From the NCBI RefSeq assembly GCF_003334335.1, contig NZ_QOWQ01000001.1: a stretch of DNA of 64,000 nt; one strand, written 5' to 3'. Within the stretch, counting starts at the first letter, position 1. Each line of letters begins with the position of its first letter. Of this stretch, positions 63,801 to 64,000 are shown one piece after another. The position numbers were made by a program. The stretch comes from Escherichia coli. GTDB taxonomy: Bacteria; Pseudomonadota; Gammaproteobacteria; Enterobacterales; Enterobacteriaceae.

Positions 63801-64000
63801 TCTGCCAGCGTGGCTTCATTAATCATGATGCTGGCTTATCAGATTCAGTACGTCGCGCACACTGTCGAGCATAGGTGTACCTGGACCATAAATCGCCGCC
63901 ACGCCGCGCTCTTGCAGGAAGGCGTAATCCTGCGGCGGAATGACGCCACCCGCGACCACGCAGATATCTTCGCGTCCCCATTTTTTCAGCGCTTCGACCA

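Follow-up and report, generated by a model that had tools for sequence, protein, structure and literature searches.

We report eight pairs of same-strand neighbouring genes whose stop and start codons overlap by 1, 4 or 8 nt in a 64,000-nt stretch of an Escherichia coli genome (RefSeq assembly GCF_003334335.1, contig NZ_QOWQ01000001.1), hereafter called the window. The overlaps, which include that between the methylmalonyl-CoA mutase gene sbm and its GTPase partner argK, were identified from the sequence together with the annotation. They are real, already catalogued and ordinary for tightly packed operon genes of E. coli, and there is nothing new in them. The eight pairs are likely to be ordinary junctions of neighbouring genes carried on one mRNA and translationally coupled.

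An earlier sequence-only reading of the window had named six of these overlaps, and all six lie where it placed them, in agreement with the RefSeq annotation of strain MG1655. Its list was incomplete, as yggT>yggU and tnpA>tnpB of an IS66-family element were left out, and the pair that it gave as hemW/rdgB is reversed, rdgB being the upstream gene. Its view of the overlaps as standard junctions of co-transcribed and co-translated operon genes is supported by the common spacings, the published listing, the conservation and the geometry of the overlaps.

Overlaps and their expected frequency

The feature table used here contains 65 features and was merged from two RefSeq annotations (MG1655 and E. 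coli G6/7). At the sbm>argK junction, translation of the sbm frame ends with LISQHHD at the TAA, and the argK product is identical to PDB entry 2p67 over residues 2-331. The start of yggF is a tandem ATGATG, each ATG of which overlaps the yggP TGA (spacing -4 or -1).

Table 1. Junctions and flanking features in the window. Negative spacings are overlaps; published spacings are from the PMC10666635 supplement, with the gene names used there if different; the last column gives the energy of the Shine-Dalgarno (SD) pairing upstream of the downstream gene.
Feature	Position	Strand	Spacing (nt)	Codons, overlap and remarks	Published spacing	SD energy (kcal/mol)
sbm (scpA) > argK (meaB)	63819..63826	-	-8	argK ATG 63826..63824, sbm TAA 63821..63819; octamer ATGATTAA	-8 (scpA>argK)	-0.7, essentially no SD
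rdgB > hemW (yggW)	29539..29546	-	-8	rdgB TAA over hemW ATG; octamer ATGGTTAA	-8	-3.0, weak
yggT > yggU	30427..30430	-	-4	yggT TGA over yggU ATG; ATGA	-4	-5.5, moderate
yqgE > ruvX (yqgF)	33311..33315	-	-1	yqgE TGA, ruvX ATG; TGATG, common base 33313	-1 (yqgE>yqgF)	-5.5, moderate
trmB > yggL	24678..24682	+	-1	trmB TAA, yggL ATG; TAATG, common base 24680	-1	-6.3, moderate
yggP > yggF	50631..50636	+	-4	yggP TGA 50632..50634 over yggF start; ATGA 50631..50634; SD GGGGAGG	-4	-11.0, strong
yggD (fumE) > yggC	52124..52127	+	-4	yggD TGA over yggC GTG; GTGA	-4 (fumE>yggC)	-5.6, moderate
IS66-family tnpA > tnpB	953..956	-	-4	tnpA TGA over tnpB ATG; ATGA; in pheV island		-10.8, strong
argK (meaB, ygfD)	62831..63826	-		methylmalonyl-CoA mutase GTPase partner; downstream gene at sbm>argK
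sbm (scpA), 3' end	63819..64000	-		methylmalonyl-CoA mutase; upstream gene, extends past the window edge
tRNA-Phe (pheV)	16372..16447			borders island at 1..16371

The genetic code permits no stop/start overlaps of 2, 3, 5 or 6 nt; hence the shortest possible overlaps are -1 and -4 for one relative frame and -8 for the other one. The latter fits the position of -8 as the third published peak: in a catalogue of spacings between unidirectional gene pairs of E. coli K-12 and 1,695 species, the overlap classes of E. coli rank as -4 first, followed by -1 and -8 (Huber et al. 2023, PMC10666635). The same three motifs are listed in the review by Brown and Wade (2025, PMC12548453). The seven chromosomal pairs have the same spacings in the catalogue as in the window, while the IS66 junction, part of an island that K-12 lacks, is missing from it.

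The bare overlap motif was rejected as significant in itself, as 16 of the 56 annotated stops have a start-type codon in the -1, -4 or -8 register. At the eight real junctions, the genes that begin at the overlapping start codon are annotated and have lengths of 96 to 378 codons. Apart from these, the long open reading frames (ORFs) that begin at overlapping start-type codons all correspond to alternative starts of speA and scpB, and the remaining ones are at most 25 codons long. A TTG in the -4 register at the yqgB stop (40890..40902) begins a 662-codon speA ORF, the annotated speA ATG being at +8, and a TTG in the -8 register at the argK stop (62821..62830) begins a 267-codon scpB ORF, the annotated scpB ATG being at +10.

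Among the 19 same-strand junctions spaced between -8 and +30 nt, eight are concentrated on just three spacings (binomial P = 4e-5). Nor is the window enriched in overlaps: its rate, 8 of 43 same-strand pairs (18.6%) vs. 707 of 2987 (23.7%) within -8..+6 nt genome-wide, is typical for E. coli (p = 0.59). One further overlap, that of the convergent genes srsR (+) and scpC (-), whose 3' ends share 4 nt (60533..60536), is of the stop/stop type and irrelevant to translational coupling.

Conservation of the junctions

The six chromosomal junctions covered by this comparison retain their annotated spacings in three divergent E. coli (about 97-98% identity), including the -8 spacing of rdgB>hemW, and the junction cores are invariant at this level of divergence. 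The sbm>argK octamer is unchanged in two E. coli strains of 96.8-97.6% identity, and identical octamers are found in E. albertii, Citrobacter werkmanii, Superficieibacter electus, and Yersinia aldovae.

For a sample across phyla, genome contigs were scanned with the degenerate pattern AA[IV][YF]GPGT, a motif located close to the C-terminus of the mutase. This yielded 120 loci, of which 111 encode a mutase homologue in frame, and 25 of these 111 have a MeaB/ArgK homologue directly downstream. At 20 of the 25 junctions, which come from both bacteria and archaea, the distance from the mutase stop to an in-frame MeaB start is between -8 and +2 nt; the gaps of the remaining five range from +21 to about +300. 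Spacings of -4 or -1 were observed in actinomycetes, Bacillaceae, Synergistales, Opitutae, Thermotogae, and two haloarchaea. The predominance of tight spacing agrees with the published cross-species spacing of Sbm>ArgK (median 0.8 nt, quartiles -3.4..28, n=372; PMC10666635). The same catalogue gives comparable values for RdgB>HemN (median -4, quartiles -8..11, n=430), AlgH>YqgF (median -1, quartiles -4..3, n=369), and YggT>YggU (median 2, quartiles -4..11, n=253).

Of 5426 complete E. coli genomes, 4283 contain the sbm>argK segment (window 60533..64000) and 1143 lack it. Strain UID2309220026 has a deletion of argK and scpB, with remnants of scpC and scpA left (locus L004, 47791..48804); yggF is a truncated pseudogene in L004. 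The gene cluster cmtBA-yggP-yggF-yggD-yggC (window about 47170..52840) also appears to be variable: 1134 of the 5426 genomes cover less than 80% of the query 29000..52500, and in the lowest-ranked genomes of a listing spread over the matches, the match to this query ends past tkt, at about 47170.

Probable translational coupling and its alternatives

Two overlapping genes have no space between them for a terminator and a promoter. In consensus scans, the junctions showed no strong terminator, and the coding strand showed no promoter-like match within about 260 nt upstream. The scans operate at chance level: promoter-like matches numbered 17 vs. 19.6 expected and 12 vs. 10.9 expected, and terminator-like matches 29 vs. 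19.1 ± 4.9 and 23 vs. 15.7 ± 3.5 in shuffles, that is, about two standard deviations above. With no promoter- or terminator-like match on the relevant strand at the junctions, they speak neither for nor against internal promoters. A published description of the sbm operon counts four genes (PMC3850637).

On an mRNA shared by both genes, a ribosome that finishes at the upstream stop may stay on the mRNA, as a 30S subunit or a 70S ribosome, and re-initiate at the adjoining start codon by termination-reinitiation or short-range scanning. The downstream gene's translation would then depend at least in part on that of the gene upstream, and the ratios of their products would be roughly fixed. This dependence should be strongest at argK and hemW, where the downstream gene lacks a usable SD, and weakest at yggF, IS66 tnpB, and yggL, where a strong internal SD would allow for independent initiation. 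For sbm>argK, the likely benefit would be matched synthesis of a mutase and a GTPase chaperone that bind each other.

The closest known systems are hyfHI, astDB, ydbH/ynbE as well as menDH, four of five native E. coli -4 pairs for which coupling was demonstrated with only the region from -99 to +30 nt present (Huber et al. 2019, PMC6728339). These are co-directional neighbours that overlap at an NTGA and have, within the upstream gene, an SD whose strength varies, and the layout of yggP>yggF, yggD>yggC, yggT>yggU, and IS66 tnpA>tnpB is the same. Coupling in the former was established with premature-stop and SD mutants, and for the pairs in the window it is presumed by analogy. A literature search on IS66 tnpA/tnpB coupling turned up nothing but an unrelated passage, so for this junction the evidence consists of sequence and annotation.

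A one-base overlap, TGATG, is present in both trpB-trpA and trpE-trpD. The former resembles trmB>yggL and yqgE>ruvX in the overlap of stop and start by one base, and it is named among the classical coupled pairs (PMC6728339). The trp pairs differ in that they encode subunits of one enzyme and their coupling was shown experimentally, while TrmB/YggL and YqgE/RuvX are not known complexes. Tight junctions are enriched among subunits of complexes, and the interaction of Sbm with YgfD/ArgK, cited in PMC3850637, fits this tendency. In the catalogue, scpA/argK is flagged as non-complex, yet ArgK is labelled 'methylmalonyl-CoA mutase-interacting GTPase' in the same entry. Among the genes considered here, gene-specific support is available for yggU only, which is one of 137 kasugamycin-resistant transcripts among 2801 analysed (PMC5230787 Table S3), such resistance being linked to reinitiation.

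Several points weigh against coupling at all of these junctions. We infer it for the eight pairs from other E. coli pairs that have been tested, and one of those, the native -4 pair bioBF, was uncoupled and initiated de novo (PMC6728339), so that the layout is no guarantee of coupling. Coupling depends steeply on distance, dropping as spacing grows, and in synthetic constructs overlaps beyond -4 lowered it, which may make coupling less efficient at the two -8 junctions. The SDs of yggF, tnpB, and yggL are strong enough for independent initiation, and the kasugamycin effect values of hemW (about 1.14) and yggC (about 0.96) indicate average sensitivity. No transcript-level data on these operons (operon, transcription start site or full-length) were found in the literature searched, and the genes are absent from the supplements on SMRT-Cappable-seq and OperonSEQer; promoters located within the upstream genes are thus conceivable.

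A rival reading is that the overlaps resulted from genome compaction and easy mutation to NTGA or TRATG, the genes being co-transcribed but the downstream ones being initiated by fresh ribosomes at their own SD within the upstream gene, whether or not the latter is translated. Such an origin is consistent with the strong SDs of yggF and tnpB and the clear one of yggL, with bioBF, with the average kasugamycin sensitivity of hemW and yggC, and with the opinion that the abundance of -4 overlaps probably reflects the ease of their evolution (PMC12548453). We nevertheless consider it unlikely. In terms of pairing between the 20 nt upstream of the start and the 3' end of 16S rRNA, for which random 20-mers average -2.2 kcal/mol, neither argK nor hemW has a usable SD, and argK is SD-poor in other enterobacteria too (+0.7 to -3.3), i.e., it lacks an SD across Enterobacterales. 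Furthermore, coupling was found in four of the five tested pairs, yggU is kasugamycin-resistant, and tight spacing has been kept far beyond the expectation from neutral drift, as shown by the 20 of 25 junctions across phyla and by published medians between -4 and +2 nt in sets of 253-430 genomes.

Alternatively, the upstream ribosome could melt a structure that locks the downstream start, so that a new 30S subunit binds and no ribosome is handed over, a mechanism established for atpHA (PMC6728339). Part of the argK AUG is indeed base-paired within a local hairpin, GCCAGC...GCUGGC, which extends across the sbm stop, and the start regions of yggU and yggF lie within or beside predicted hairpins. 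These small local hairpins are unexceptional, however: folding of the -70..+30 nt segments revealed no exceptional structure over the start region at any of the eight junctions, the segments being no more stable than shuffles (z from -0.99 to +1.10). Binding of a fresh 30S subunit would still require an SD, which argK and hemW lack, and several reasons why unfolding alone fails to explain short-distance coupling have been given in the review, where evidence in favour of a scanning ribosome is also summed up. We therefore regard unfolding as improbable.

Misannotated start codons would make some of the overlaps spurious, and this we consider very improbable. In-frame alternatives that could serve instead exist for yggL (ATG 30 nt upstream, at 24650, SD -6.1), yggU (GTG at -12), yggC (GTG at +18, the next candidate, without an SD), and hemW (GTG at +48). 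The yggL alternative would lengthen the overlap to 31 nt, and those of yggC and hemW have SDs no better than the annotated starts. No alternative start codon is present within -126..+87 nt of ruvX. The argK ORF opens 9 nt upstream of the ATG at 63826, its next start-type codon is at +75, and the structures of MeaB homologues align to ArgK from residue 12; thus, this ATG is the sole workable argK start, the full N-terminus being required by the homologues. In addition, divergent genomes that were annotated independently have the same starts, and orthologous pairs cluster at -1, -4 or -8.

Within the preferred reading of coupled operon junctions, it is possible, though we would hold it only tentatively, that the -8 junctions, and sbm>argK above all, are sites of obligatory backward reinitiation, with ArgK made solely by ribosomes that finish Sbm and step back 5-8 nt. 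The lack of an SD at argK and the identity of ATGATTAA in five enterobacterial genera point in this direction. A natural fusion, IcmF, joins an acyl-CoA mutase to a MeaB-like GTPase and has a fixed 1:1 output. With obligatory reinitiation, the sbm>argK overlap would approximate such a fixed output of mutase and G-protein chaperone; the difference is that IcmF is one polypeptide, whereas sbm>argK encodes two proteins in overlapping frames.

Genomic setting and meaning of the junctions

The backbone of the window is K-12-like. Positions 44000..64000 are 100% identical to E. coli K-12 strains, and a base-by-base comparison of 16372..64000 with MG1655 (NZ_CP032667.1) revealed 6 differing bases over 47.6 kb. 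Positions 1..16371, which sit across the pheV tRNA-Phe gene from this part, are unrelated to K-12 and form an island with a 99.9% match to one inserted at pheV in E. coli G6/7. This island stands in place of the K-12 glc/sslE/gsp region, the backbone being otherwise K-12-like, and its content includes IS66 copies and fragments, the autotransporter gene sigA, a gene for an AAA-domain protein of 1171 aa, and a tyrosine integrase gene. Every intact coding sequence in the window translates cleanly, except for sigA (4617..8474, minus strand), which has an in-frame premature stop at codon 783 (6126..6128); its counterpart at the same place in E. coli G6/7 is intact and encodes 1285 aa.

Other E. coli strains contain additional genes in several gaps of this region, all absent from the window and from K-12. 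These are a five-gene ECF-transporter cluster between yggC and epd (window 52838..53121), a lipoprotein gene between speA and speB (42879..43015), a prohibitin-family gene after tkt (47170..47482), and a TRAP transporter between yggM and hemW (28256..28409).

The overlaps back the operon and start-codon calls in this region; beyond annotation quality they carry little weight, and they bring no new biology. On their own, argK and hemW would probably be poorly expressed, which is useful to know when genes of the sbm operon are cloned separately; in an engineered 1-propanol pathway, deletion of ygfD/argK reduced the titre to about one third (PMC3850637). If backward reinitiation does operate at sbm>argK, it would keep the mutase/chaperone ratio fixed, and the junction would be a native system in which SD-independent upstream repositioning of post-termination ribosomes could be tested cleanly.
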